Source of the DNA: an uncultured Holophagales bacterium
GTDB taxonomy: Bacteria > Acidobacteriota > Thermoanaerobaculia > UBA5066
Assembly: GCA_964561935.1 (NCBI GenBank)
Contig: CAZLQX010000003.1
Coordinates: forward strand, 66,848 to 130,847
Reading direction: 5' to 3'
DNA: 64,000 bases
Part shown: positions 3,813 to 62,227 of the stretch, piece after piece
Position numbering within the stretch: position 1 is the stretch's first letter
How the letters are laid out: the number at the start of each line of letters is the position of its first letter
Program-made: the position numbers and the translations under genes
Notes under the pieces: generated by a model
The model's database searches: none
The model's input: only the letters and a program-made list of their open reading frames with translations
Told to the model about the DNA's origin: nothing

Positions 3813-4352
3813 TCAGGAGGAGAGCTTCGACGCGACGGCCCGCACCGTCGTGACGTTCCGGAAGGTCGCGAGGAGCCCGAGCGCCTTCTCGAGCCGCCCT
3901 CCCGAGACCTCGGAGTCGGACGAGCGGACGCGGCAGAGCCACCAGATCTCGCGCTCGCTCACGGCGAGCTCGTCGGACGGCGTCCGGAAGCCGTCGACGA
4001 GGGCGTGCCGGTCGGGAGCGAGCGGCTCCTTCAGGAAGCCGACGTAGACCCCGTGGGCCGTCGCGACGTCCTCGGCGGGGAACGGCTCGCGGGCGACGAG
4101 GGCCGCGAGCTCGGCGGGGGTCCTGAGGAACGCCGGGACCTCCCAGCCGAGCGCGGTCCCGAGCGAACGCTCGATCTTCGCCTCGAGCGTCGCGGCGCGC
4201 CCGCGCCCCGCCGTGAAGAGGACGTTCCCGCTCGCGACGTGGGTCGTGACCCCGGTGAAGCCCGTCTCCTCGAAGAGCTGCCGGAGGCGTTCCATCTTCA
4301 CGACCCGCCCGCCGACGTTCACGGCGCGGAGGAAGGCGGCGTAGCGGGGCAT
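3813..4352 (-). CDS. DUF1697 family protein
   Basis: 179 aa matching the DUF1697 signature (MPRYAAFLRAVNVGG…VxMxxL…ASGNVLF). Confidence 0.75.
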   Translation of the reverse strand: MPRYAAFLRAVNVGGRVVKMERLRQLFEETGFTGVTTHVASGNVLFTAGRGRAATLEAKIERSLGTALGWEVPAFLRTPAELAALVAREPFPAEDVATAHGVYVGFLKEPLAPDRHALVDGFRTPSDELAVSEREIWWLCRVRSSDSEVSGGRLEKALGLLATFRNVTTVRAVASKLSS

Positions 4353-17403: not shown

Positions 17404-17856
17404 TCAGCGGGAGGCGGCTTCCTCGCAGATCTCCTTCAGCTTCGCGAGCGCCATCGGCCACGCGTCGTCCATGAACGCCTCGAAGTCGGGGGGCGTCTCC
17501 ACCTCGGCGGTCACCTCCGTCGCGCCGCCGACGTCGACGAACGTGTAGTTCTCGAACGAGGGGGGCCAGGCCGTGGCCTCGGGGCTCGTCGTGTCCTCGA
17601 CGCCGTCCTTGACGATCCCGAGGTGCTTGATCGAGACGAACTCCGGCGGGCGGCTCTCGGCGATGACCGAGGTCATCCCTCCGTCGCCGCCCGGCCCGAG
17701 GAAGCGGATCCGGTCCCCCGTGTTCCAGGAGCCCTCGTAGTACGAGCCTTCGCAGAACGGCGTCGTCCAGACCCGGTAGGTCTCCGGTCCGAGCATCGCG
17801 GCCCAGACGGCCTCGCGCGGCGCGCGGATGGTGATCGAGTGACGGACCTTCTTCAT
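17404..17856 (-). CDS. SRPBCC (Aha1/START-like) family protein
   Basis: Start re-set to ATG with GGAGG 5 nt upstream (MKKVRHSITIRAPREAVWAAM…). This N-terminus is typical of the AHSA1/SRPBCC fold. Confidence 0.7.
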   Translation of the reverse strand: MKKVRHSITIRAPREAVWAAMLGPETYRVWTTPFCEGSYYEGSWNTGDRIRFLGPGGDGGMTSVIAESRPPEFVSIKHLGIVKDGVEDTTSPEATAWPPSFENYTFVDVGGATEVTAEVETPPDFEAFMDDAWPMALAKLKEICEEAASR

Positions 17857-49337: not shown

Positions 49338-49518
49338 CGCGCCGCATGCCGCGGGGAGGCTCGTGGCGAGCCTCCCCGATCCGCTCCGGCTTCCCGATCG
49401 AGGGGAGGCGCCGGAGGCGCCGCGGGGAGGCTCGTGGCGAGCCTCCCCGATCCGCTTCGGGGTTCCCGATCGAGGGGAGGCGCCGGAGGCGCCGCGGGGA
49501 CGCTCGTGGCGAGCCTCC
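49338..49518. repeat. REP-like tandem repeat array: about 2.5 copies of a 71-72 bp unit, each with a perfect 11-bp stem / 3-nt loop hairpin
   Basis: Unit: GCCGCGGGGAGGCTCGTGGCGAGCCTCCCCGATCCGCT(C/T)CGG(C/GG)TTCCCGATCGAGGGGAGGCGCCGGAGGC. Copies start at 49338, 49409 and 49481, and the third is partial with one stem mismatch. The array lies between convergent genes. Confidence 0.7.
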
Positions 49519-49528
49519 CCGATCCGCT

Positions 49529-50854
49529 CTATGCCGAGAGCCGCGGGTTCAGGGCGATCGCCTTGTTGAGCGCCTCGACCGCCGCCTCGAACTTCTTGAG
49601 CCCCTCGTAGGTCGTCTTCATCGCGTACCACGCCTCGGCGTAGTCGCTCTTGAGGGCGACGGCCTTCTTCAGGTGCCCGAGCGCCTCGTCGAAGGCGAGC
49701 TCCCGGTTCGCGGCGAGGCCGAGCCCGTAGTGCGCTTCCGCGCAGGAGGCGTCGCCGTCGAGCGCCGCCCGGAATGCCTCGGCGGCCTCGGGGAGCTTCC
49801 CTTCCTCCAGGAGCGCCATCCCGTGCGCGGCGTGGACGGGGGCGCTCTTCGGGTCGATCTCGACGGCCCTCTCGAACGTCTTCTGGGCGTCGCGGAACTT
49901 CTTCATCCGCCCGTAGGCGAGGATCGCGCACGCGGGGAGGAGCGGGTCCTTCGGGAACTTGCGCGAGGCCGCCTGGGTGGTCTCGACCGTTCCCTGGAAG
50001 TCGCCCGACTCGAGGAGCGCCCGGGCCGTCTTCAGGTGGAGCTCCGGGTCGTCCTTGTGCTGCTCGAGCGCCGTCCGGAGCGGCTTCACCGCCGAGGCGA
50101 AGTCCTTCGCTTCGTAGAGGGCAAGGCCGAGCTTCCGGTGGACGGGAGAGGTGTCGGGCGCCGTCTTCGCCGAGATCTTGTAGTTCTCGAGGGCGGTCTT
50201 CAGCTTCCCGCCGAGCTTCATGAGGTCGCCGAGGTTCTCGAAGAGGAGAGGGTCCGTCGAGGTGCGCGCCGCCTTCCTCAGGCGGAGCCGGGCCCGCTCC
50301 GCGTCGCCGCGCGAGTAGTCGACGAGGGCGAGCATGTGAAGGAGAGGCGCGTCCTCCACACCTCCCTGCTCGGCCCACGACTCGACGTCCTTCAGGATCT
50401 TCCGCGCCTCCTCGGTGAGGGTCTTCGGGTGGTCCCCGGCGAGCTCCTCGAGCCGCTCGGGGAAGCCGTCGGCGGCGAGGCGCTGGCGGAGCGTCTCGAA
50501 GGCCTCCCGGGCCTTCCGGCCGAAGAAGAAGCGCTGGGTCGTCTGCTCCCGTTTCGCCCTGTCGGCGAGGGAGTCCCTCTCGGCCGTGGCCGCCGCGAGC
50601 TGCTCCTCGGCAGCGGCGAGGCGGGCCTCGAGGTCCGCGGACCTCTCGGCGAGGGCGGTCCGTTCCGCAGAGACGGTCTCCAGCTCGCGCGCGATCCGCG
50701 CCCTTTCGGTCTCGACCTCGGCGAGACCTTCCCGGAGCTTCGAGGCTTCCTCGGTCGAGGAGGTCTTCAGGGCGGAGAGGGAGCGGAAGAGGACGACGGC
50801 GGTGACGACGGCCACGGCCGCGAGGGCGAGGGCGACGAGCAGTCCTGTCGACAA
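49529..50854 (-). CDS. membrane-anchored coiled-coil / TPR-repeat protein
   Basis: TTG start with GGAGG 6 nt upstream. Has an N-terminal TM segment, a coiled coil, then 6 or more TPR units. Confidence 0.65.
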   Translation of the reverse strand: MSTGLLVALALAAVAVVTAVVLFRSLSALKTSSTEEASKLREGLAEVETERARIARELETVSAERTALAERSADLEARLAAAEEQLAAATAERDSLADRAKREQTTQRFFFGRKAREAFETLRQRLAADGFPERLEELAGDHPKTLTEEARKILKDVESWAEQGGVEDAPLLHMLALVDYSRGDAERARLRLRKAARTSTDPLLFENLGDLMKLGGKLKTALENYKISAKTAPDTSPVHRKLGLALYEAKDFASAVKPLRTALEQHKDDPELHLKTARALLESGDFQGTVETTQAASRKFPKDPLLPACAILAYGRMKKFRDAQKTFERAVEIDPKSAPVHAAHGMALLEEGKLPEAAEAFRAALDGDASCAEAHYGLGLAANRELAFDEALGHLKKAVALKSDYAEAWYAMKTTYEGLKKFEAAVEALNKAIALNPRLSA

Positions 50855-51053
50855 GGGGCTCCTCCGCGCGAAAGGAACGGCGCGACTCGGGATGTTACCT
50901 CCGGGAGCGCCCTCTGCGGAACGGAGAAGCCCTGTCCGGGCGGAGGGTCGTGCGGCGCGGTCGAGCGCTCCGCCGCGCCCGGCGGCGAACCGGCGCCAGG
51001 GGGCAGGTGGCGGCCGGAGGCCGCCGTTAGAATGCGGCGTGGCTCGCACCAGG

Positions 51054-53198
51054 ATGTCGCCCCGCTGCCTCGCCGTCGCCCTCGCCGCCCCGCTCGCGCT
51101 CCTCGCCCCGGCCCTGGCCGCCCAGGAGGTCAAGGGACGGGTCGTCGTCCTCGGCTTCGACGGGGCCGACCACCGTCTCGTCTCCCAGTACATCGCGGAG
51201 GGGAAGCTCCCGAACCTCGCGCGGCTCGCCCGGGAGGGAAGCTTCTCGCCCCTCCGGCCGACGATCCCCGCCCAGACGCCGGTCTCCTGGTCGACCTTCT
51301 CGACCGGGCTCTCCCCGGGCCGGACGCAGATCTTCGACTTCCTGAAGAGGGACCCGAAGACCTACCGGCCCGAGTTCGCCGTCGCGACGGAGGGGAAGAG
51401 GCGCTTCCTCCTCGGGAGCGGGAACCGGGCCGGCGCCGCGGCCCTCGGGGCGCTCCTCGCGTTCCTCCTCGTCTTCCTCCTCGGCCGCTTCACGGTGAAG
51501 CGGACGAAGCCCGCGGCCCTCGTCGCACTCGTCCTCGCGGCGCCCGCCGGCTTCTTCTCCTACCGCTTCGGCGGCCTCCTCCCCGAGTCGCTCCAGACCG
51601 TCCACAACAACCGGAAGGGGACGCCGTTCTGGGAGGTCGCCGGTAAGAGCGGGATCCGGTCGGTGGTCCTCCATGTCCCGGTCACCTTCCCGGCCGTCGA
51701 CTTCGACGAGGGGCGGCTCCTCTCCGGGCTCGGCGTCCCCGACGTGCGGGGGCGGATCGGCACGCCGAGCTACTACACGTCCGACCCGTTCTTCTCGCCC
51801 CGGAACAAGAACGAGTTCTCCGTGGAGCTCGTCCGCCTCGAGTCGAACGTCGGGACGATCCGGACGGAGGTCTTCGGCCCCTACAACAAGCTCTTCGGCG
51901 AGCCCCCGGTCATCAGGACGCCGATGACGCTGACGGTCCTCCCGGACGGCGGGCGCCTGAGGATCGAGCCGAAGGGGAGCGAGCCGGTGACGCTGAAGCC
52001 GGGCGAGTGGTCCCCCTGGGTCACCTTCACGTTCGAGTTCAACCCGGTCGTCAAGCTCTCCGGCATCGGGCGCTTCCACCTCGCGAAGCTCGCGCCGGAG
52101 ATCGAGCTCTACCTCTCGCCGATCCACTTCAACCCGGCGAAGCTCCCGCCGGGCGTCAAGATCACGGCCCCCGGCGGCCTCGCGAAGGACCTCGCGAAGC
52201 GCTTCGGCCTCTACAAGACGATGGGCTGGTCGATCGACACCTGGTCGATGAGCGAGGAGACGATCGACGAGCCGACGTTCCTCGACGACGTCACCTTCAC
52301 GGTGCAGCAGTACCGGAAGATGATGGACGGGCTCCTCGCCGAGAAGGACGTGAAGCTCTACGTCCAGGTCTACGAGTTCACGGACCGGGTCGGCCACGTC
52401 ATGTGGCGCTTCCTCGACCCGACGCACCCGGCGTACGACGCGGAGAAGGCGGCGATGTTCGGTCCCTCCGTGGAGCGGAACTACGTCCAGATGGACGAGA
52501 TCGTCGGCGACGCGCTGAAGGAGCTCGGGCCGGACGACCTCCTCCTCGTCTGCTCCGACCACGGCTTCTCGAGCTGGAGGCGGTCGATCAACTACAACAC
52601 CTGGCTCGTCGAGCACGGCTACCTCGCGCTCAAGGGGGGCGACGAGAAGCAGGCGGACCTCGAGCAGCTCTTCGGCCAGGGGGAGTTCTGGCCGAACGTC
52701 GACTGGTCGCGGACCAAGGCCTACTCGATGGGCCTCGGCGAGATCTACGTGAACCTGAGGGGCCGCGAGTCGCAGGGGATCGTCGAGCCGGGGGCCGAGT
52801 ACGACGCTCTCCGGCAGGAGATCCGGGTGGGGCTGATGGCGATCGTCGACGAGGCGACCGGGCGCCGCCCCGTCGAGCGCGTCTACACCCGCGAGGAGGC
52901 CTACGGCTCGTTCGACCCGAACGTCATCCCGGACATCTTCGTGACGAACAGCGAGGGCTACCGGGTCTCGTGGCAGGCGAGCCTCGGCGTCGTCACGCCG
53001 GAGCTCTACGAGGAGAACGTCCAGGTCTGGTCGGGCGACCACTGCTCGGTCGACCCCGACGTCGTCCCCGGGATCCTCCTCTCGAGCCGGCCGCTCCGGA
53101 AGGAGCCCCGACCGAACATGGCCGACGTCCCCGCGACGATCTACAAGGCGCTCGGCCTGACGCCGCCCGAGCCGCTCGACGGGGAACCGCTCTTCTGA
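51054..53198 (+). CDS. secreted alkaline-phosphatase-superfamily protein (type I phosphodiesterase/nucleotide pyrophosphatase-like) with internal hydrophobic insertion
   Basis: Has a signal peptide. AP-superfamily metal and nucleophile motifs are present: VVLGFDGADH, PTIPAQTPVSWSTFSTG, LLVCSDHGF. Confidence 0.75.
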   Translation: MSPRCLAVALAAPLALLAPALAAQEVKGRVVVLGFDGADHRLVSQYIAEGKLPNLARLAREGSFSPLRPTIPAQTPVSWSTFSTGLSPGRTQIFDFLKRDPKTYRPEFAVATEGKRRFLLGSGNRAGAAALGALLAFLLVFLLGRFTVKRTKPAALVALVLAAPAGFFSYRFGGLLPESLQTVHNNRKGTPFWEVAGKSGIRSVVLHVPVTFPAVDFDEGRLLSGLGVPDVRGRIGTPSYYTSDPFFSPRNKNEFSVELVRLESNVGTIRTEVFGPYNKLFGEPPVIRTPMTLTVLPDGGRLRIEPKGSEPVTLKPGEWSPWVTFTFEFNPVVKLSGIGRFHLAKLAPEIELYLSPIHFNPAKLPPGVKITAPGGLAKDLAKRFGLYKTMGWSIDTWSMSEETIDEPTFLDDVTFTVQQYRKMMDGLLAEKDVKLYVQVYEFTDRVGHVMWRFLDPTHPAYDAEKAAMFGPSVERNYVQMDEIVGDALKELGPDDLLLVCSDHGFSSWRRSINYNTWLVEHGYLALKGGDEKQADLEQLFGQGEFWPNVDWSRTKAYSMGLGEIYVNLRGRESQGIVEPGAEYDALRQEIRVGLMAIVDEATGRRPVERVYTREEAYGSFDPNVIPDIFVTNSEGYRVSWQASLGVVTPELYEENVQVWSGDHCSVDPDVVPGILLSSRPLRKEPRPNMADVPATIYKALGLTPPEPLDGEPLF

Positions 53199-53284
53199 GG
53201 CTCCGCGCGGCCCTCCTCCTGGCGCTCCTCGCGGCCCCGCCGGCCGGGGCGCAGGAGGAGGGGGCGCGCCCGCCGGCCCGGGAG

Positions 53285-54364
53285 ATGGGCGGGGCGGAGC
53301 GGCGGCGGGAGCTCGAGCTCCTCCGGCAGCGTCTCGCCCTCCTGAAATCCCGCTACGAGACGACCCGCCGGAAGGCGGTCGACACCCGCGAGCAGCTCGA
53401 GGCGGCCGAGGCGAACCTCGAGCTGAGGACCGCCGAGAGGCGGCTCCTCGAGCTCCGGGCCGCCGAAGCCGAGCGCGCCGCAGTGCAGGCGCAGTCCGAC
53501 CGGGACGTGGCCGTTCGCAAGAGCGGCGCGCTCCGGGCCGACGTCGCCGTGCGGCTCCAGGCCCTCTACCGGATGGGGCGGCTCGGATACCTCCAGACGC
53601 TCGCCTCTGCCGACTCGGGAGAGTCCTTCCTTCGCGGGCTCCAGCTCCTCTCATTCCTCGCGGCCCGGGACGTGCGCCTCCTGCGCGCCTACGAGGGCTC
53701 CCTCGCCGAGCTCGCCGCGAAGGAGAGGAGCCTCGCGGCCCTCCGCGCCGCGATCGCGAACGTCGCCGCCGAGGCGCGAGCGGCGGAGCGGGAGCTGGCG
53801 CGGGCGCGGGCCGAGAAGGCGGCGCTCCTCGCGCGGCTCGAGCGGACCGCGGAGTCGCAGCGGACGCGGGTCGCGGCGCTCGAGGAGAAGACCGACCGCC
53901 TCGCGGCCCTCCTCGAGCTCCTCGAGACGCGGGGGAGGTCGCTCCCGGCCGGCTCGGCCTCCATCCGGCGGTACAAGGGGGCCCTCGACTGGCCCGCCGA
54001 GGGGGAGGTCGTCGTCCCCTTCGGCCGGATCGCGAACCCCCGCTTCCCGAAGACGTTCCTGAGGTCGAGCGGCTGGACGATCGACGTCCCCACGGGCACT
54101 CCGGTGCGGGCGGTCTTCGCGGGCGACGTCGTCTACGCCCAGTGGCTGAAGGGCTACGGGAACCTCGTCGTCCTCGACCACGGGGACGGGGTCTTCACCC
54201 TCTACGGGCACCTGATGACGGGGACCGCGGCCCGGGGGACGCGGGTCTCGCTCGGCGAGGTCGTGGGCAGGGTCGCCGATCCGCCCGAGGAGGAGGTCGC
54301 CGGCGTCTACTTCGAGATCCGCGAGAGCCGGGCCTCCGTCGACCCCCGCTCGTGGCTCAGGTAG
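53285..54364 (+). CDS. EnvC-like murein hydrolase activator (coiled coil plus degenerate M23/LytM domain)
   Basis: Coordinates start at the first in-frame ATG. A signal-peptide-like segment from 53195 has no ATG/GTG/TTG start. The LytM region VVLDHGDGVFTLYGHL is present and the HxH motif is replaced (VYFEIRE). Confidence 0.7.
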   Translation: MGGAERRRELELLRQRLALLKSRYETTRRKAVDTREQLEAAEANLELRTAERRLLELRAAEAERAAVQAQSDRDVAVRKSGALRADVAVRLQALYRMGRLGYLQTLASADSGESFLRGLQLLSFLAARDVRLLRAYEGSLAELAAKERSLAALRAAIANVAAEARAAERELARARAEKAALLARLERTAESQRTRVAALEEKTDRLAALLELLETRGRSLPAGSASIRRYKGALDWPAEGEVVVPFGRIANPRFPKTFLRSSGWTIDVPTGTPVRAVFAGDVVYAQWLKGYGNLVVLDHGDGVFTLYGHLMTGTAARGTRVSLGEVVGRVADPPEEEVAGVYFEIRESRASVDPRSWLR

Positions 54365-54437
54365 GTGGCGTCCGGGGCCTTCGCCCGGCGGGCCGGGCCC
54401 GTGCAACCGGCCCGGCGCGATCCCGTATCATCGTCGC

Positions 54438-55757
54438 GTGACGAAGTCCCGGCTCGCGTCGTTCCTCGGCTCGCTCGCCCTCCTCGGCACCCTCTTCCTC
54501 GTCCTCCCCGGGCTCGGCGCGGACGAGAAGAAGGAGAAGGGGGGGAAGGACGGCCTCTACCGACCGCTCGGCCTCTTCGCGGAGGTCCTCTCGCTCGTCA
54601 AGGGGAACTACGTCGAGCCGGTCGAGGTGACGCCCCTGCTCCAGGGCGCGTTCGCCGGGATGACCGAGGCGATGGACCCGTTCTCGGAGTACGTTCCGCC
54701 CGGCAGGATGGCCGCCTTCGAGGCGGCGAGGGCGGCCCGCGGGAAGGCCGACCACGTCGAGTCGGGCCTCGTCCTCGCCCGTCGCGGCGGGTACCCCGTC
54801 GTCGTGACGGCCGTCCCAGGGAGCCCCGCCGCCGTGGCAGGGATCCGGACGGACGACGTCCTCGAGAAGGTCGGGGGCGTCTCGGCGCGGGGCCTCGCCC
54901 TCTGGGAAGTGGAGGCGGCCCTCTCGGGCAAGCCGGGCGGCCGCGCGAGCCTCCTCGTCGTGAGGGATGCGAAGCCGCGGCGGCAGACCGTCGAGATCGT
55001 GCGCGCCTCGTGGACGCCCGCCCTTCCGTCGGCCGAGCGCGTCTCCGGGGAGCTCGTCGTCCGGATCCCGGCTTTCGTGCCCGGGACGACGGACGCGCTC
55101 GCGAAGCTCCTCGCCCCTCTCGACCGGACGAAGCCGCTCGTCCTCGACCTTCGCGGCAACGCCCGGGGCGAGTGGGACGAGGCGGCGCTCGCCGTCTCGC
55201 TCCTCGGCCCGGCCGGCCCGGTCGGAGACCTGAAGGGGCGGAAGGTCGCGACGAGGAGCTGGAAGGCCGAGCCGGGTCGACGCGTCCACGAGGGCGGGCT
55301 CGTCCTCCTCGTCGACAGCGGCACGGGAGGTCCTGCCGAGCTCTTCGTCGCGGCGCTCCGCGAGGCCGCGGCGAAGGAAGCGGGCTTCGACGTCGCCGCG
55401 GCGGTTCGGCGCGAGGAGAGGAAGGCCGAGAGCGGTCTCGACGACGATCCGGGCGCGGCTCCGGCCCCGGCCGTCGAGAAGGGGAAGCTCCGGGTCCGCG
55501 TCGTGGGCGAGCCGACGTTCGGGATGGGGATCACGCAGGAGGTCGTCCGCCTCGCGAGCGGCGGCGCGCTCCGCATCACCGTCGGCAAGGTGAGGACCGC
55601 AGCCGGCCGGACACTCTCGCCGCGCGGCGTCGCTCCCGACGACCGCGTCTTCCACGTCCTTCCCGAGGAGGGGGAGGAGGGGAAGCTCCCGGATCCCTTC
55701 CTCGAGCGCGCCCTGAAGGTCGTCACCGAGCTTCCCGCCGCTCCGCGCGCCTCGTGA
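54438..55757 (+). CDS. S41 family C-terminal processing peptidase homolog (CtpA-like) with PDZ; catalytic Ser/Lys motifs substituted
   Basis: GTG start, signal peptide and PDZ domain. The S41 core reads LVDSGTGGPAELF (canonical GSASAAE) and GEPTFGMGITQ (canonical TFGKG). Confidence 0.75.
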   Translation: MTKSRLASFLGSLALLGTLFLVLPGLGADEKKEKGGKDGLYRPLGLFAEVLSLVKGNYVEPVEVTPLLQGAFAGMTEAMDPFSEYVPPGRMAAFEAARAARGKADHVESGLVLARRGGYPVVVTAVPGSPAAVAGIRTDDVLEKVGGVSARGLALWEVEAALSGKPGGRASLLVVRDAKPRRQTVEIVRASWTPALPSAERVSGELVVRIPAFVPGTTDALAKLLAPLDRTKPLVLDLRGNARGEWDEAALAVSLLGPAGPVGDLKGRKVATRSWKAEPGRRVHEGGLVLLVDSGTGGPAELFVAALREAAAKEAGFDVAAAVRREERKAESGLDDDPGAAPAPAVEKGKLRVRVVGEPTFGMGITQEVVRLASGGALRITVGKVRTAAGRTLSPRGVAPDDRVFHVLPEEGEEGKLPDPFLERALKVVTELPAAPRAS

Positions 55758-56680
55758 CGGCGGCCCGCCGGCGCGGCGGCTGCGGTCGGTCGCTCGGCCT
55801 CCTCGTCGGCCTCGCGGTCCTCCTCGCGCTCGCAGCGGGCGCCGTCCGGCTCCTGCGCTCCCGCGCCGAGGCGCCTGTCGCCGGTCCGACCGGGGAGCGC
55901 CCGGGGGCGACGCCGTCGCCGACGCCCTCGCCGACGCCCCGGCCGACGCCTCGCCCGCGGACCGTGGCCGTCCCCGCCGATTTCGAGCCGGCGGCTGGCG
56001 AGGGAAGGGGGGCCGTCGCCGTCGTCATCGACGACGTCGGGAACGCCGACGGCTCGATCGAGCGACTCGCACGCCTCGAGGGACCGCTCGCGATCGCGGT
56101 CCTCCCCGGGGCGCCGCGGGCCCGCGAGGCGGCCGCCCTCGCGCGGCGGAAGGGCTGGGACCTCCTCGTCCACCTCCCGATGGCCGGCGTGCGAGGCCCC
56201 GCGGAGCCGGGGACGATCTCCTCGGACGACGACGACGCGGCGATCGCGCGGCGGGTCGAGGAGGCGATCGCGTCCGTCCCCGGTGCCGTCGGCCTCAACA
56301 ACCACCAGGGTTCCCTCGCGACGGCCGACGAGCGTGTCATGCGCGTCGTCCTGACCGTCGTCCGCGACCGTGGCCTCTTCTTCCTCGATTCCAAGACCTC
56401 CGCCGCGAGCGTCGCCGAGGCCGAGGCACGCGCCCTCGGCCTCGCGACGATCCCGCGGGACGTCTTCCTCGACGACGCCCGGGCCGAGGCGGCGGCGGGA
56501 GGGGCGCCCGAGGCGCGCGCGGCGGCGTGGACGCGCGCTCTCGCGATCGCGGCCTCGGGCGGGCACGCCGTCGTCATCGGTCACCCGAACGCGGCGACGG
56601 TCGACTTCCTCGGGAAGGCGCTTCCCGAGCTCGGGCGGAAGGGCGTCCTCCGGGCGCGCATCTCCGAGCTCGTCGACTGA
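55754..56680 (+). CDS. divergent polysaccharide deacetylase family protein (YibQ-like)
   Basis: GTG start overlaps the ctpA-like stop (GTGA). Has an N-terminal TM segment and PT-rich linker, then the YibQ core (AVVIDDVGN…LNNHQGS…VIGHP). Confidence 0.75.
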   Translation: MTAARRRGGCGRSLGLLVGLAVLLALAAGAVRLLRSRAEAPVAGPTGERPGATPSPTPSPTPRPTPRPRTVAVPADFEPAAGEGRGAVAVVIDDVGNADGSIERLARLEGPLAIAVLPGAPRAREAAALARRKGWDLLVHLPMAGVRGPAEPGTISSDDDDAAIARRVEEAIASVPGAVGLNNHQGSLATADERVMRVVLTVVRDRGLFFLDSKTSAASVAEAEARALGLATIPRDVFLDDARAEAAAGGAPEARAAAWTRALAIAASGGHAVVIGHPNAATVDFLGKALPELGRKGVLRARISELVD

Positions 56681-56791
56681 CGGGCGCTCCCGCGCGGGAC
56701 CCGGGAGGGGCGCGCGACCTCGCCCCGCCGGGCGTCGCGGGCTATCATCACGGCGCTCCAGCGCACGGAAGAGACGACGGGGGTTGCCGCG

Positions 56792-57211
56792 ATGGAACTT
56801 TTCGACGAGATCGAGCTGACGGACGACGAGGCGCGCGCGATCGGGCGGGCGATGCTCGCCGTGGCGCGGGCCGACGGCGCGGCCGAGCCCCGCGAGGTCG
56901 CGCTCATCGAGCAGCTCGCGCCGGTCGACCCGGCGGCTCCGGCCCCGCAGGCGGCGGAGCTCGCGGCGGCGATCCCGCGTGCGGACGCCCGGGAGCTCCT
57001 CCTCCGTTCCGCCCTCCTCGTCGCCCTCGTGGACGGCGACTACAGCGAGGCGGAGAAGGCGCTCGTCGCCGACTGGGCCGGGGCGTTCGGCGTGGCGCCC
57101 GCGCGGCTCGAGGAGCTCGCGAGCTCGGTCAAGGCGTTCCTGATGTCCCCGCTCGTCCCGCTCTCGAACAGCCCCGCGGTCGCCGAGGTCTCGAGGAAGC
57201 TGAGGGTCTGA
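56792..57211 (+). CDS. TerB-like / DjlA N-domain-like protein
   Basis: 139 aa acidic helical protein with the TerB-like repeats (ELTDDEARAIGRAMLAVARADGAAEPREVALIEQL … DGDYSEAEKALVADWAGAFGV). Confidence 0.55.
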   Translation: MELFDEIELTDDEARAIGRAMLAVARADGAAEPREVALIEQLAPVDPAAPAPQAAELAAAIPRADARELLLRSALLVALVDGDYSEAEKALVADWAGAFGVAPARLEELASSVKAFLMSPLVPLSNSPAVAEVSRKLRV

Positions 57212-57310
57212 ACCGGCGCCCCGGCGCGCGCCGGGCGGGCCGGGGGCGCCTCCCGCGCACGGGCTCCGGCCGCCTTTCGTCCGCGACCGCCGCGCGTAGA
57301 CTCCCGGGCC

Positions 57311-59824
57311 ATGCGTGGCCGCCCGTTCGCCCCGGCGCTCTTCCTCGCCCTGATCGCCCCGGCCGCCGTCGCGGCCCCGCCGTCGCCGTCGGCCTTCCTG
57401 CGGAAGCCGGTCGGCGCGGACCGGACCCTCGCCGACTGGCGCGAGGTCGTCTCCTACTTCCGGGCGCTCGACGCCGCCTCCGACCGTGTCGAGGTCTCGA
57501 CGATCGGGCGGTCGACGCGCGGGGAGGAGATGGTCCTCGCCGCGATCTCGAGCCCGGAGAACCTCGCGGGGAAGGAGCGGATCCGCGCGATCGCGCGGAG
57601 GCTCGCGGACCCGCGCGGCCTTTCCGACGCCGACGCGCGGGCCCTCGTCGCCGAGGGGAAGGTCGTCCTCCTCGTGACCTGCGGCATCCACGCGAGCGAG
57701 ATCGGCGCCTCGCAGATGGCGATGGAGTGGGCGCACGCCCTCGCGACGGCCCAGGACGCGGAGACGAAGCGCCGCCTGTCGGAGGTCGTCCTCCTCCTCG
57801 TCCCGTCGCTGAACCCCGACGGCCACGCGATGGAGGTCGACTGGTACCGGAAGAACCTCGGCACGCGGTGGGAGGGGAGCCGGATGCCCTGGCTCTACCA
57901 CCACTACGTCGGCCACGACAACAACCGCGACTTCACCCAGCTCACGCAGGCCGAGACGAAGGCGATCAGCCGCGTCCTCTACCACGACTGGTTCCCGCAG
58001 GTCTTCCTCGACGAGCACCAGATGGGGACGAACGGGCCGCGCATGTTCGTGCCGCCGTACGCCGACCCGCTCGACCCCGACATCGACCCGCTCGTCATCC
58101 GCGAGGTGAACCTCATCGGGTCGCTCATGTCGATGCGGCTCGAGCAGGCGGGAAAGGCGGGCGTCATCTCGGCGTGGGCCTTCGACGCCTCCTGGCCCGG
58201 CGGGTCGAAGAACACGGCCTGGTGGAAGAACGTGACGGGAGTCCTGACCGAGGTCGCCTCGGTCAGGGTCGCGACGCCCGTCGAGGTCCCCCCGTCCGAG
58301 CTTCGCGGCGGCGGGAAGGGGCTCGTCACCTACGGGACGCAGTCGAACTTCCCGAACCCCTGGCGGGGCGGGACGTGGCGGCTGCGCGACGTCATGGACT
58401 ACGAACGGGTCGCCTCGGACGCGATCCTCGAGTTCTGCGCGACGCACCGGCCGGACGTCCTCTCGAACATGCTCGCGAAGGCCCGCGCCTCGATCGGAGC
58501 CGCGGCCCCGGGCGAGACGTACCGGATCCCGAGGGCGCAGCGCGACCCGGCGGCCGCCCGCGCGCTCGCGGCGCTCCTCGTCGAACACGGCGTCGAGGTG
58601 TTGGCCGACGCGAACGGGGACGCCTGGGTCCCCCTCGCGCAGCCGTACGGGCGCTTCGTCCGCGAGATGCTCGAGCCGCAGCGCTTCCCCGAGGTGAAGC
58701 TCGTGCCGGGGAAGGAGATCGTCGCCCCGTACGACGTCACGGCCTGGAGCCTCCCGCTCTCGATGGGCGTGACCGTCGGGAAGGGGACGCTCCCCGAAGG
58801 GCTGGCCCCCTGGAAGGCGCCGGCGACGCCGGCCCTTCCCGCCGCGGAGACGTATGCGCTGGGCCCTGGGAGCCCGGAACGCTGGAAGGTCGTCGCCGCG
58901 GCCCGGAAGGGGGGCGAGGTCTCGCTCCTCCCGGCGGCCGCGGGAAGCCTCCCGGCCGGGACGCTCCTCCTCGACGCGGGGGCGGCGAAGGCCGGCGCGG
59001 CCGTCGCGGGCGAGCTCGGTCTCGCCCTCGAGCCCCTCGCGGCGGCCCCCGCCGGCGCAGCGAGGCTGCGCACCCCGCGCGTCGGCCTCTACAAGCCGTG
59101 GCTCGCGTCGATGGACGAGGGGTGGACGCGGTTCCTCCTCGAGCGGTACGGCTTCGCGCCGGTGACCCTCGACAACGCGGGCCTCCGAGCCGGGAAGCTC
59201 GGCACGCGCTTCGACGTGATCGTCCTTCCCGACGTCGAGAAGGAGGTCCTCGCCGGCGGGAAGCCGAAGCGCGACGAAGGCGAGATGCGCTACTTCCCCG
59301 AGCCGCGGCCCGAATACGCGGGCGGGCTCGGGAAGGAAGGGTCCGCGGCGCTGAAGGAGTTCGTCGAGGGAGGCGGGACGCTCGTCGCCCTCGCCTCCTC
59401 CTCCGAGTACCTGATCGACGAGCTCGCCCTCCCCGTGAGGAACGCCCTCGCGCACGTCCCCTCCTCGGAGTTCCTCTGCCCGGGCGGCCTCGTGAGGATC
59501 GAGCTCGGCCCGGCGCACCCGGTCACGTTCGGCCTTCCCGAGTCGCTCCCGGCGTTCCTCGACGGGCCGCTCGCCTTCCAGACCGCGATCCCGGGGGCGG
59601 AGATGACGCGGACCGTCCTCGCCTCGTACCCGGAGCAGGCTCGCGACGTCCTCGTCTCGGGCTGGATCCGCGGCGAGGAACGGCTCGCGCGGAACGCCGC
59701 GGCTGTCGCCCTGACGCTCGGGACGGGAAAGGTCGTCCTCCTCGGCTTCCGGGCCCAGCACCGCGCGCAGACGCTCGCGACGTTCCCGTTCCTCTTCAAC
59801 GCCCTCGTCTGGTCCGTGCTCTGA
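57311..59824 (+). CDS. secreted M14-family zinc carboxypeptidase-like protein with large C-terminal extension
   Basis: Has a signal peptide. M14 Zn-binding motifs are present: CGIHASEIG (HxxE), SLNPDGH, …HQMG. Confidence 0.8.
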   Translation: MRGRPFAPALFLALIAPAAVAAPPSPSAFLRKPVGADRTLADWREVVSYFRALDAASDRVEVSTIGRSTRGEEMVLAAISSPENLAGKERIRAIARRLADPRGLSDADARALVAEGKVVLLVTCGIHASEIGASQMAMEWAHALATAQDAETKRRLSEVVLLLVPSLNPDGHAMEVDWYRKNLGTRWEGSRMPWLYHHYVGHDNNRDFTQLTQAETKAISRVLYHDWFPQVFLDEHQMGTNGPRMFVPPYADPLDPDIDPLVIREVNLIGSLMSMRLEQAGKAGVISAWAFDASWPGGSKNTAWWKNVTGVLTEVASVRVATPVEVPPSELRGGGKGLVTYGTQSNFPNPWRGGTWRLRDVMDYERVASDAILEFCATHRPDVLSNMLAKARASIGAAAPGETYRIPRAQRDPAAARALAALLVEHGVEVLADANGDAWVPLAQPYGRFVREMLEPQRFPEVKLVPGKEIVAPYDVTAWSLPLSMGVTVGKGTLPEGLAPWKAPATPALPAAETYALGPGSPERWKVVAAARKGGEVSLLPAAAGSLPAGTLLLDAGAAKAGAAVAGELGLALEPLAAAPAGAARLRTPRVGLYKPWLASMDEGWTRFLLERYGFAPVTLDNAGLRAGKLGTRFDVIVLPDVEKEVLAGGKPKRDEGEMRYFPEPRPEYAGGLGKEGSAALKEFVEGGGTLVALASSSEYLIDELALPVRNALAHVPSSEFLCPGGLVRIELGPAHPVTFGLPESLPAFLDGPLAFQTAIPGAEMTRTVLASYPEQARDVLVSGWIRGEERLARNAAAVALTLGTGKVVLLGFRAQHRAQTLATFPFLFNALVWSVL

Positions 59825-60763: not shown

Positions 60764-62227
60764 TACTACTGTGTTGCGAAAGTCGGTGGTTTCGTGCGAG
60801 CGGGGGGGCGATCCGTGATGGCTCTCTGGCGGCAGGGACATCGGGGAATCCCCTCCAGAAGTACGAGAGCGATTCGTACGCGCATGGTCTCGATCGACTC
60901 CGGGACGTGTCGCTGCGGACGGATCGGGAGCACCCCTCGGGCGGAAACCTCCGGGTACGGCAGCGACCTGGAACGGGAGTCCGAGGAGCGAAACGCCTGA
61001 GGGGGAAGAAAGGCCCCGTTCCACGGCGAGGAAAGCGTATGCGGCTATGCAGAGCGTCGCGTGATGGTGGAAGCCCCGCCATCCACGGCCTTCGTAGTGG
61101 TCCAGTCCGATCTCGTCCTTCAGTTCCTCGTAGTCGCGCTCGGTGCGCCACCGCAGCTTTGCCGTCCGCACGAGCGTTGCGAGCGGCGTGTTCGGCGGCA
61201 GGGTCGACAGGAAGTACTTCGTGGGCTCCTTCTGGCCCGAGGGCCACTCGATCAGAAGCCATTCCTCGGGGCGGGCCTCGGCTCGCCAGTAGTCGCGAAG
61301 AGCGGGCCGGACGCGGACCGCATGGAAGCGCGACGTGAGCGGGGCTTTCGTGCCCTGCCGCCAGGTCACGGATCGGAAACGCGCGCGCCCGATTCGCTGC
61401 GCGAGCGCCTCGACGGAGATCGGCTGATGGGTCGCGTCTCGAGAGAGAAGCCTGGGGGGGCGTCCCTTGCCGGAAGAGGCAGGGGCAGGCAGAGGGCCCT
61501 CGCCCGGAGGCCAGACAGTCGTCGCAGCCTGGATTCCGACGGCGTATTCGAGGCCGAGCGCGGTGACGTCGTCACGGAAGGGCGTGCTGTCGCCGTATCC
61601 GGCATCGGCCAGGAGAACCCCTTTGGGGACCCCATCCTCGACCGCGGTTCGAAGCTGGGCCGTGGCGATCTCGAGCTTCGTCCGGAAAGGGACTTCGTCA
61701 GGGACACCCGCCTTCATTCGCCGCTCCCGGTCGGCCGCCCAGACCTCCGGCAGATAGAGCTCGTAGGCGATGGGCAGGCTGAGGCGCTCGTTGGCCACGG
61801 AGAGGCTTACGGCGACCTGGCAGTTCTCCTGCTTTCCGAGAACACCGCAGTGCTGACGCGTGACTCCCACCGAATGGCGTCCCTTCTTCGGAATGCCCGT
61901 GTCGTCCACGATCCACGCCTTCACACCGCCGTGCGCCTGGAACACGGGCAGGGCGTAATCCCGGATCGCCGCCAGAAGCCTGCGGTCGCTCCAGGGCGAA
62001 TCCGCCACCAGGTGGTGCATGCGCTGATGGACCGAGCGCACGTCGCCAGGCGCGAGCCGCGCGGCCATCGGCTCCACACTCTTCCGCTCCCCGGGCAGAA
62101 GAAGCCCGGCGCAGTAGAGCCGAAGCGGCTCAGCGCGATCCGAATGCCCGACCGCCCTCATCAAGACCGACGTGCAGTTTTCGAACCGTTCGCTCGGCGA
62201 CGGGGCGAAGCCGGCGCTTGTGGCCAT
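60764..62227 (-). CDS. IS701-family DDE transposase; no in-frame stop inside the element
   Basis: N-terminus MATSAGFAPSPSERFENCTSVLMR…WIVDDTGIPKKG…LLADAGYGD…GWRGFHHHATLCIAAYAFLAVERG. The ORF stays open to 59927 and runs antisense through the PG-binding gene. The 3' end given here is the putative IS boundary. Confidence 0.55.

Follow-up and report, generated by a model that had tools for sequence, protein, structure and literature searches.

A probable CUG start codon, conserved over the stop codon of an upstream gene, for an EnvC-like protein of Thermoanaerobaculia

The window analysed here is a 64-kb stretch (64,000 nucleotides, 74% G+C) of contig CAZLQX010000003.1 from an uncultured Holophagales bacterium (assembly GCA_964561935.1). 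We focused on the junction between a phosphodiesterase-family gene and the gene for an EnvC-like protein that follows it. EnvC proteins work together with FtsEX in the periplasm. Judging from the sequence, translation of the EnvC-like gene probably begins with the CUG at 53195, in overlap with the UGA that ends the upstream gene. The features at the junction are the following.

51054 to 53198, + strand: upstream gene for a 714-aa protein of the type I phosphodiesterase/alkaline-phosphatase superfamily (Pfam PF01663, E 7e-31)
53181 to 53184, + strand: Shine-Dalgarno (SD)-like GGGG (GGAG in many relatives), made of the Gly codon of ..LDG.. and the first base of the next codon, with a 10-nt spacer to the CTG
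53195 to 53197, + strand: proposed CTG initiation codon of the EnvC-like gene, in a CTGA of −4 geometry that overlaps the upstream stop
53196 to 53198, + strand: TGA stop of the upstream Phosphodiest/alkaline-phosphatase-superfamily gene
53195 to 53251, + strand: predicted Sec-type signal peptide with (M)RLR as n-region, AALLLALLAA as h-region, PPAGA as c-region and cleavage at AGA/QEE
53195 to 54364, + strand: full EnvC-like open reading frame (ORF) of 389 codons plus TAG, with signal peptide, coiled coil and degenerate LytM/M23 domain
53285 to 53287, + strand: internal ATG, the start in current gene calls (359-aa product without the signal peptide)

At the junction the upstream frame reads ...CCG CTC TTC TGA and the −1 frame reads CTT CTG AGG CTC CGC.... 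The EnvC-like gene lies in this −1 frame, which runs free of stops across the junction to 54364. CTG is an allowed start codon in translation table 11. An earlier sequence-only reading had placed the CTG over the TGA and the first downstream ATG at 53285, and each of its coordinates is correct. That no ATG, GTG or TTG precedes this ATG in the EnvC frame is also true, back to a GTG at 52970. The description of the CTG as the only possible start was too strict, since no stop closes the EnvC frame at the junction; the frame stays open as far back as 51644 and holds GTGs at 52970, 52403 and 52007. These GTGs all lie deep within the phosphodiesterase gene and are not conserved in relatives, and to this extent the description stands. 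In two related loci (L079 and L080), an in-frame stop lies 8 codons 5' of the CTG.

As the same reading had noted, the 30 codons between CTG and ATG encode a signal peptide (translation L-RLRAALLLALLAAPPAGA/QEEGARPPARE). Signal peptides were assigned here by their n-h-c features and hydrophobicity. The predicted peptide takes up 19 codons from the CTG and includes a 10-residue hydrophobic core and an A-x-A site. The maximal 9-residue Kyte-Doolittle value is 2.9 in the EnvC frame, whereas the two other frames reach −1.4 and 0.2. Over the 30-60 codons that lead up to the CTG, the EnvC frame has a G+C content at third codon positions (GC3) of 0.47-0.50; the value is 1.00 between CTG and ATG and 0.96 beyond the ATG. 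This rise, from about 0.5 to 1.0, coincides exactly with the CTG, so that the segment between CTG and ATG looks coding and the profile puts the beginning of the coding sequence at the CTG. No canonical codon can supply this N-terminus, and a Sec signal peptide is predicted for the protein only if translation begins at CTG 53195.

The predicted protein matches PF01551 (Peptidase_M23) with an E of 9e-23. Among PDB entries it matches EnvC chains from FtsEX-EnvC complexes best (8tzk, 8i6o, 6tpi, and 8hd0), and phmmer aligned residues 58-388 with the EnvC chain of 8tzk and residues 173-388 with E. coli EnvC 6tpi. In the alignment ..VYFEIRE.. pairs with ..LYFEIRR.., and ..YFEIR.. sits where active M23 enzymes have HxH. 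The signal peptide, the long coiled coil and the C-terminal LytM domain are common to this protein and the EnvC of the FtsEX-EnvC divisome module, an amidase activator. The two differ in the gene neighbours, which here are a Phosphodiest-family gene upstream and genes for an S41 protease and a YibQ-like protein downstream, and in the family score. The top NCBIfam match is EnvC NF008644 at 77.8 bits, below the equivalog cut-off of 270 bits, and for this reason we use the label EnvC-like and not that of the curated equivalog.

We collected ortholog DNA from one genome per GTDB species, from metagenomes, and from the loci of three canonical-start proteins. Removal of duplicates left 50 unique junctions at 56-100% protein identity. 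An in-frame CTGA is found in 43 of these, nearly always with a signal peptide directly after it. All 17 loci from the species-representative genomes, which are metagenome-assembled genomes (MAGs) of Thermoanaerobaculia, 'Holophagales' and Acidobacteriota at 58-100% protein identity, have TTC followed by TGA, the in-frame CTG over the stop, and an n-h-c signal peptide at once. Examples of the peptides after the CTG are LNVRAVLFLALLAAGLAGA/EEE, LRRLVALVALFVLAAGARA/QE, and LKRLPALSAVLLVAAGVRA/QE. The maximal Kyte-Doolittle values of the orthologs are 2.1-3.5 in the EnvC frame against 1.3 or less in the other frames, with the exception of four loci that carry an insertion. The codon after the CTG varies (AGG, AAC, AGA, AAG, AAA, AGC, or ACC), and the CTG alone is conserved. 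This state is shared by dozens of species and reaches lineages with only 56-60% protein identity to each other, and in a neighbour-joining tree the CTG is on nearly all ingroup branches, the canonical variants being confined to one subclade and L090.

These comparisons bear on a simpler explanation, namely that translation starts at the first canonical downstream codon (ATG 53285), that the hydrophobic stretch is untranslated, that EnvC is cytoplasmic or otherwise exported, and that the annotation is right. The ATG is picked by gene callers and by the NCBI annotation, and its Met is conserved in the closest relatives (..AREM..). However, it is kept in this closest clade only. Across the 43 CTG junctions the nearest canonical start downstream in the frame varies in position between codons 7 and 134 and frequently lies well inside the mature protein. 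There is thus no conserved canonical alternative, and in many loci such a start would remove part of the mature protein or coiled coil. The GGGAG in front of ATG 53285 directly abuts it with no spacer. A start at the ATG would further need the n-h-c features, the open frame and a GC3 of 1.0 to have arisen by chance in more than 40 lineages, and relatives with canonical starts place them ahead of the same signal peptide. The sequence-only reading had allowed that orthologs might start at the ATG and lack the upstream hydrophobic segment; the orthologs keep it. We therefore regard initiation at ATG 53285 as quite unlikely.

The state of the databases is consistent with a start that gene callers do not recognize. 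A search of a large protein collection gave 341 relatives. The internal ATG, with a product of 359 aa, is the called start of the identical protein P0001 (100%) and of most relatives at 77-87% identity. Further called N-termini lie within the hydrophobic segment or beyond it (VAPPAGAQEG... and MLLALLAPPAGAEEG..., among others), and only a minority have the full signal peptide behind a canonical start (for example MRGLFLPLVIGVATTVAAQEE, MRRFGLLALILGLSSPAFAAEE, and MKGAFVLLCLALSTGSALGQD). In about nine of ten full-length relatives (P0001-P0120) the called N-terminus lies inside or after the signal peptide, including NCBI-annotated proteins such as P0019 (359 aa). Such ragged N-termini are to be expected if the real start is invisible to callers that accept ATG, GTG and TTG alone. 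This N-terminal truncation is a systematic mis-annotation of the EnvC-like family in Thermoanaerobaculia/'Holophagales' MAGs. With their signal peptide missing, the truncated entries would lead to the protein being mis-predicted as cytoplasmic, which standard callers cannot mend.

The SD-like element lies within the conserved C-terminus of the upstream protein, which ends ...PLDGEPLF before the TGA in the window and ..KLDGxPLF* in orthologs. Each of the 43 CTG junctions has GGA (21) or GGG (22) as the Gly codon 12-14 nt before the CTG, with GGC and GGT absent there, and the base that follows is always G, giving GGAG or GGGG. The background Gly usage of these genes is 56-58% GGC, 31-36% GGG, 5-8% GGA, and 2-3% GGT. 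The neighbouring synonymous sites vary freely, with CTC, CTG or CTT for Leu and CCG, CCC or CCT for Pro. GGC at the Gly site occurs only among the non-CTG junctions, in four of seven (L053, L054, L072, and L090), which have GTG or a moved start. If phylogeny is ignored, the hypergeometric probability of finding all four pyrimidine-ending codons within the set of seven non-CTG junctions is about 1.5e-4. The purine-only Gly codon thus appears to maintain an SD-like element at a workable distance from the CTG.

Several orthologs carry natural variants of the start, which mark this base as the place of initiation. The sequence-only reading had suggested comparing orthologs for a GTG at the start base, and this comparison gave GTG in L054 and L055 and TTG in L065, next to the CTG of the 43 junctions. 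In L054 the upstream gene ends ...CTC TTG TGA, which creates GTGA at the homologous base and changes the upstream Phe to Leu. L055 also has GTGA, and its upstream gene is one codon longer. In L065 and L093 the change to TTT TGA gives TTGA and is synonymous for the upstream gene, and in L091 the last upstream codon has changed to CTC (CTC TGA) with the CTGA still kept. The start has moved in L053, L064 and L090, where a GTG or ATG lies a few bases past the stop (in L090 with its own GGGG), and in L072, where an ATG lies ahead of the upstream stop. In the canonical-start variants the start is directly ahead of the same M-(R/K)-x-hydrophobic-AxA-QE layout. A more distant group at 36-40% identity has ATGA or GTGA, again with a Phosphodiest-family gene upstream. 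Because this group shares the gene pair and the overlap, both the pair and the −4 overlap are ancestral.

In members of the distant group (L016 at 1553-1568, L018, L022, L023, L027, and L021) the junction reads ..TGG AGA TGA or ..TGG AAA TGA, and the upstream protein ends in ..W[KR]*. GGAG or GGAA abuts the ATG there without a spacer, an odd position for an SD element. L022 has a tandem duplication of the ..WK* junction.

The GTG at the homologous base in L054 and L055 could also be taken as a sign that the CTG is a recent inactivating mutation from GTG, or a sequencing or assembly error at 53195. The sequence-only reading had raised both, the first as a change that would strand EnvC in the cytoplasm. 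Neither holds against the comparison. Forty-three unique junctions, drawn from more than 40 independent assemblies at 56-100% identity and from nearly all ingroup branches, share this C, and the CTG state spans the lineages that have diverged down to 56-60% identity. We consider this explanation refuted.

A different kind of explanation is a programmed −1 frameshift or other recoding at ...CUC UUC UGA, which would yield a phosphodiesterase-EnvC fusion with the "signal peptide" as an internal hydrophobic segment. The frame relation would allow it, since the EnvC frame is −1 and open across the junction in most loci, and TTC-TGA is invariant in the CTG loci. However, the junction lacks an X XXY YYZ slippery heptamer, and the preceding codons vary (CTC, CTG or CTT; CCG, CCC, CCT or TCG). 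The RNA also shows no conserved stimulatory structure downstream. RNAalifold on 29 orthologs gave no conserved structure at the junction other than a 5-bp helix between SD and start (−2.2 kcal/mol, no covariation), and the single-sequence fold of the junction was no better than shuffles (z = +1.09). Sister lineages (L053, L064, L072, and L090) initiate EnvC independently from a GTG or ATG after or before the stop, and the basic n-region and AxA/QE cleavage site fit an N-terminal signal peptide. A frameshift would leave the SD-like element unexplained as well. We judge recoding very unlikely. Because no conserved RNA structure was found, coupling of the unfolding type is likewise without support.

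Initiation could be non-canonical without using the CTG in the proposed manner, either from another nearby near-cognate codon or through a lineage-wide relaxed proofreading with an altered initiator tRNA or IF3. Near-cognate codons do occur, an ATT 7 codons upstream in L079 and L080 and an ATC 3 codons upstream in L001, and a tRNAfMet anticodon-stem variant lowers the discrimination against CUG in E. coli (PMC11497404). Against other codons, the CTG is the sole conserved one and the codon that follows it varies. Against relaxed proofreading, no other gene of the 64-kb window needs a CTG start, and the two other CTGA occurrences are due to chance. A scan of the window for tRNA genes found none. 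We give both forms of this explanation little credence.

We therefore return to initiation at the CUG, and consider it most likely that this start is old and maintained, and that it is served by termination-reinitiation coupling. Rare CTG initiation with translational coupling, one of the two options of the sequence-only reading, is the one that all the comparative tests favour, through the 43 of 50 junctions with CTGA and signal peptide, the GTG and TTG at the same base, and the retained GGAG/GGGG. A ribosome that has just terminated on the UGA would be held on the mRNA by the SD-like element 10 nt upstream of the CUG. The held ribosome would step one base back and re-initiate at the CUG with initiator tRNA. 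The product would be a pre-protein with a 19-residue Sec signal peptide, cut after AGA, and the mature coiled-coil/LytM activator would reach the periplasm. As CUG is very poor for de novo 30S initiation, the EnvC level would be low and tied to translation of the upstream gene. Such an output would suit an activator of cell-wall amidases. The arrangement points to a link between production of a divisome amidase activator and a phosphodiesterase-family envelope protein encoded upstream.

Several points weigh against initiation at the CUG or weaken the case for it. CUG initiation in E. coli reaches about 0.1-3% of that from AUG (bioRxiv 10.1101/063800), and CUG forms less stable initiation complexes and is an uncommon bacterial start (PMC11497404). 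The 10-nt SD spacing exceeds the 4-8 nt of most SD-bearing genes of the window, whose GGAG or GGAGG is in one case 12 nt from the start. As the loci share ancestry, raw junction counts overstate their independence. Codon bias alone explains the conserved C of the CTG, and selection on this base cannot be told apart from it. TTC makes up 97.6-99.5% of the Phe codons in the background, and the single TTT (giving TTG) among about 45 junctions fits this usage. We accordingly excluded conservation of the C itself from the evidence, and we gave little weight to the conservation of TGA over TAG, a change that takes two mutations. Finally, L057, L060, L061 and L062 have 17-20 extra in-frame codons (LTRAGEPRPGGG.RRGRG.., Arg/Gly-rich) between the CTGA and the h-region. 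The inserted stretch has no canonical start in any of the four (L057 at 1405-1540, L060 at 596-720, L061, and L062). In L060 the site homologous to the window CTG, about 60 nt past the upstream stop, reads CTG AGG a second time, and the actual start in this subclade is ambiguous.

A stronger proposal is that CUGA is a selected "coupling-only" start, at which de novo 30S initiation is rejected by proofreading and only the SD-held, just-terminated ribosome accepts the CUG. We hold this to be possible but on the whole doubtful. If it were true, EnvC, a potentially lytic amidase activator, would be produced only in a small, constant proportion to the upstream envelope enzyme, and this design would have been kept through the whole history of a large Thermoanaerobaculia clade. 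The junction would then also be a natural test case for relaxed start-codon stringency of re-initiating bacterial ribosomes. The GTG, TTG and ATG variants together with the co-varying SD offer a clean system, for comparison and for experiment, for asking if re-initiating ribosomes tolerate CUG and if weak starts set stoichiometry.

Weak starts that are kept over time have a known example in infC, the IF3 gene, whose AUU/AUA start codon is conserved for autoregulation. Both genes have retained a weak non-canonical start through long divergence, plausibly as a means of setting or regulating how much protein is made. The EnvC-like gene uses another codon, its weak start is joined with a −4 overlap, and it has no known feedback logic. 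The envC of E. coli has an ordinary start codon.

Conserved CTG starts are known from other bacterial genes. In Deinococcus-Thermus the CTG start of rpsL is conserved and backed by peptides, and in E. coli a plasmid RepA has a CTG start (PMC2830850). As in those cases, the CTG start described here was derived from a conserved N-terminus upstream of the canonical starts, is kept in related genomes, and is missed by annotation. The peptide support for the Deinococcus case sets it apart from the EnvC-like CTG, which is deduced from sequence. The EnvC-like CTG differs further in overlapping an upstream stop, and the N-terminus at stake is an export signal.

The NTGA (−4) overlap is a common geometry of coupled genes (PMC12548453). 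The junction resembles coupled NTGA pairs (PMC12548453, PMC6728339) in that the start and the upstream TGA have two bases in common, both genes run in the same direction within one operon, the SD-like element lies inside the upstream coding sequence, and the window contains at least six ordinary pairs with ATGA or GTGA. It differs in that N is C, giving CUG in place of AUG, GUG or UUG, and is kept over a deep clade and not sporadic; for the EnvC-like gene, coupling is deduced from the arrangement. Literature searches turned up no specific report of an envC CTG start or of CTG starts that hide signal peptides. CTG starts that are conserved are thus known already from bacteria, and the EnvC-like case is set apart by the depth of conservation, the CUGA overlap, the co-varying SD, and the GTG/TTG/ATG revertants. 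Deeply conserved CUG starts are rare in bacteria, and this one sits in the commonest coupling geometry.

The sequence-only reading had counted at least five other gene pairs with ATGA or GTGA in the window, and six were located. They and two further genes of the operon are listed here.

27745, + strand: GTGA gene pair (window scan)
63083, − strand: GTGA gene pair (window scan)
41845, − strand: GTGA gene pair (window scan)
12568, − strand: GTGA gene pair (window scan)
8425: further overlapping pair, ATGA
55754: further overlapping pair, GTGA
54438 to 55757, + strand: S41 (CtpA-like) protease with a PDZ domain (Pfam, gene calls)
55754 to 56680, + strand: Polysacc_deac_2 (YibQ-like) gene (gene calls), in GTGA overlap with the S41 gene (sequence CTCGTGACGG)

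Two more in-frame CTGA occur in the 64-kb window, at 17407 (−) and 3816 (−) (regions 17404-17410 and 3813-3819). They were rejected as starts; the CysK-like and Tpx-like genes there begin at ATGs 28-29 codons downstream (17320 and 3732). Both are chance occurrences and serve as negative controls for in-frame CTGA in this genome. An in-frame CTGA alone therefore means little, and the case for 53195 rests on the signal peptide and the comparative data. Under a stricter test that demands coding-type composition on both sides of the NTGA, 53195 is the sole CTGA to survive, together with four GTGA. The gene finder, a crude one based on GC3, overlooked some genes or cut them short, and we used it solely for listing junctions. 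At 74% G+C, mechanical ORF lists are unreliable here, and the real frames were picked by codon-position G+C. Spurious very long ORFs are open in several frames, such as 49346-51646 (+) with 49529-51193 (−) and a 1717-aa ORF at 54608-59761 (−).

The operon at 51054-56680 (+) has the order Phosphodiest, EnvC-like, S41/PDZ protease, and YibQ-like deacetylase, and its first gene is called as 714 aa on identical contigs too. The order resembles that of the gpmM-envC-yibQ cluster of E. coli, where the upstream enzyme is of the alkaline-phosphatase superfamily as well. The same order of Phosphodiest, EnvC-like, S41 and YibQ-like genes is found in L053. A few kb past the operon lies a DDE transposase gene (PF13546/PF01609, 486 aa) at about 60764-62224 (−), which is also seen at 9929-11389 of L136, a contig identical to the window.

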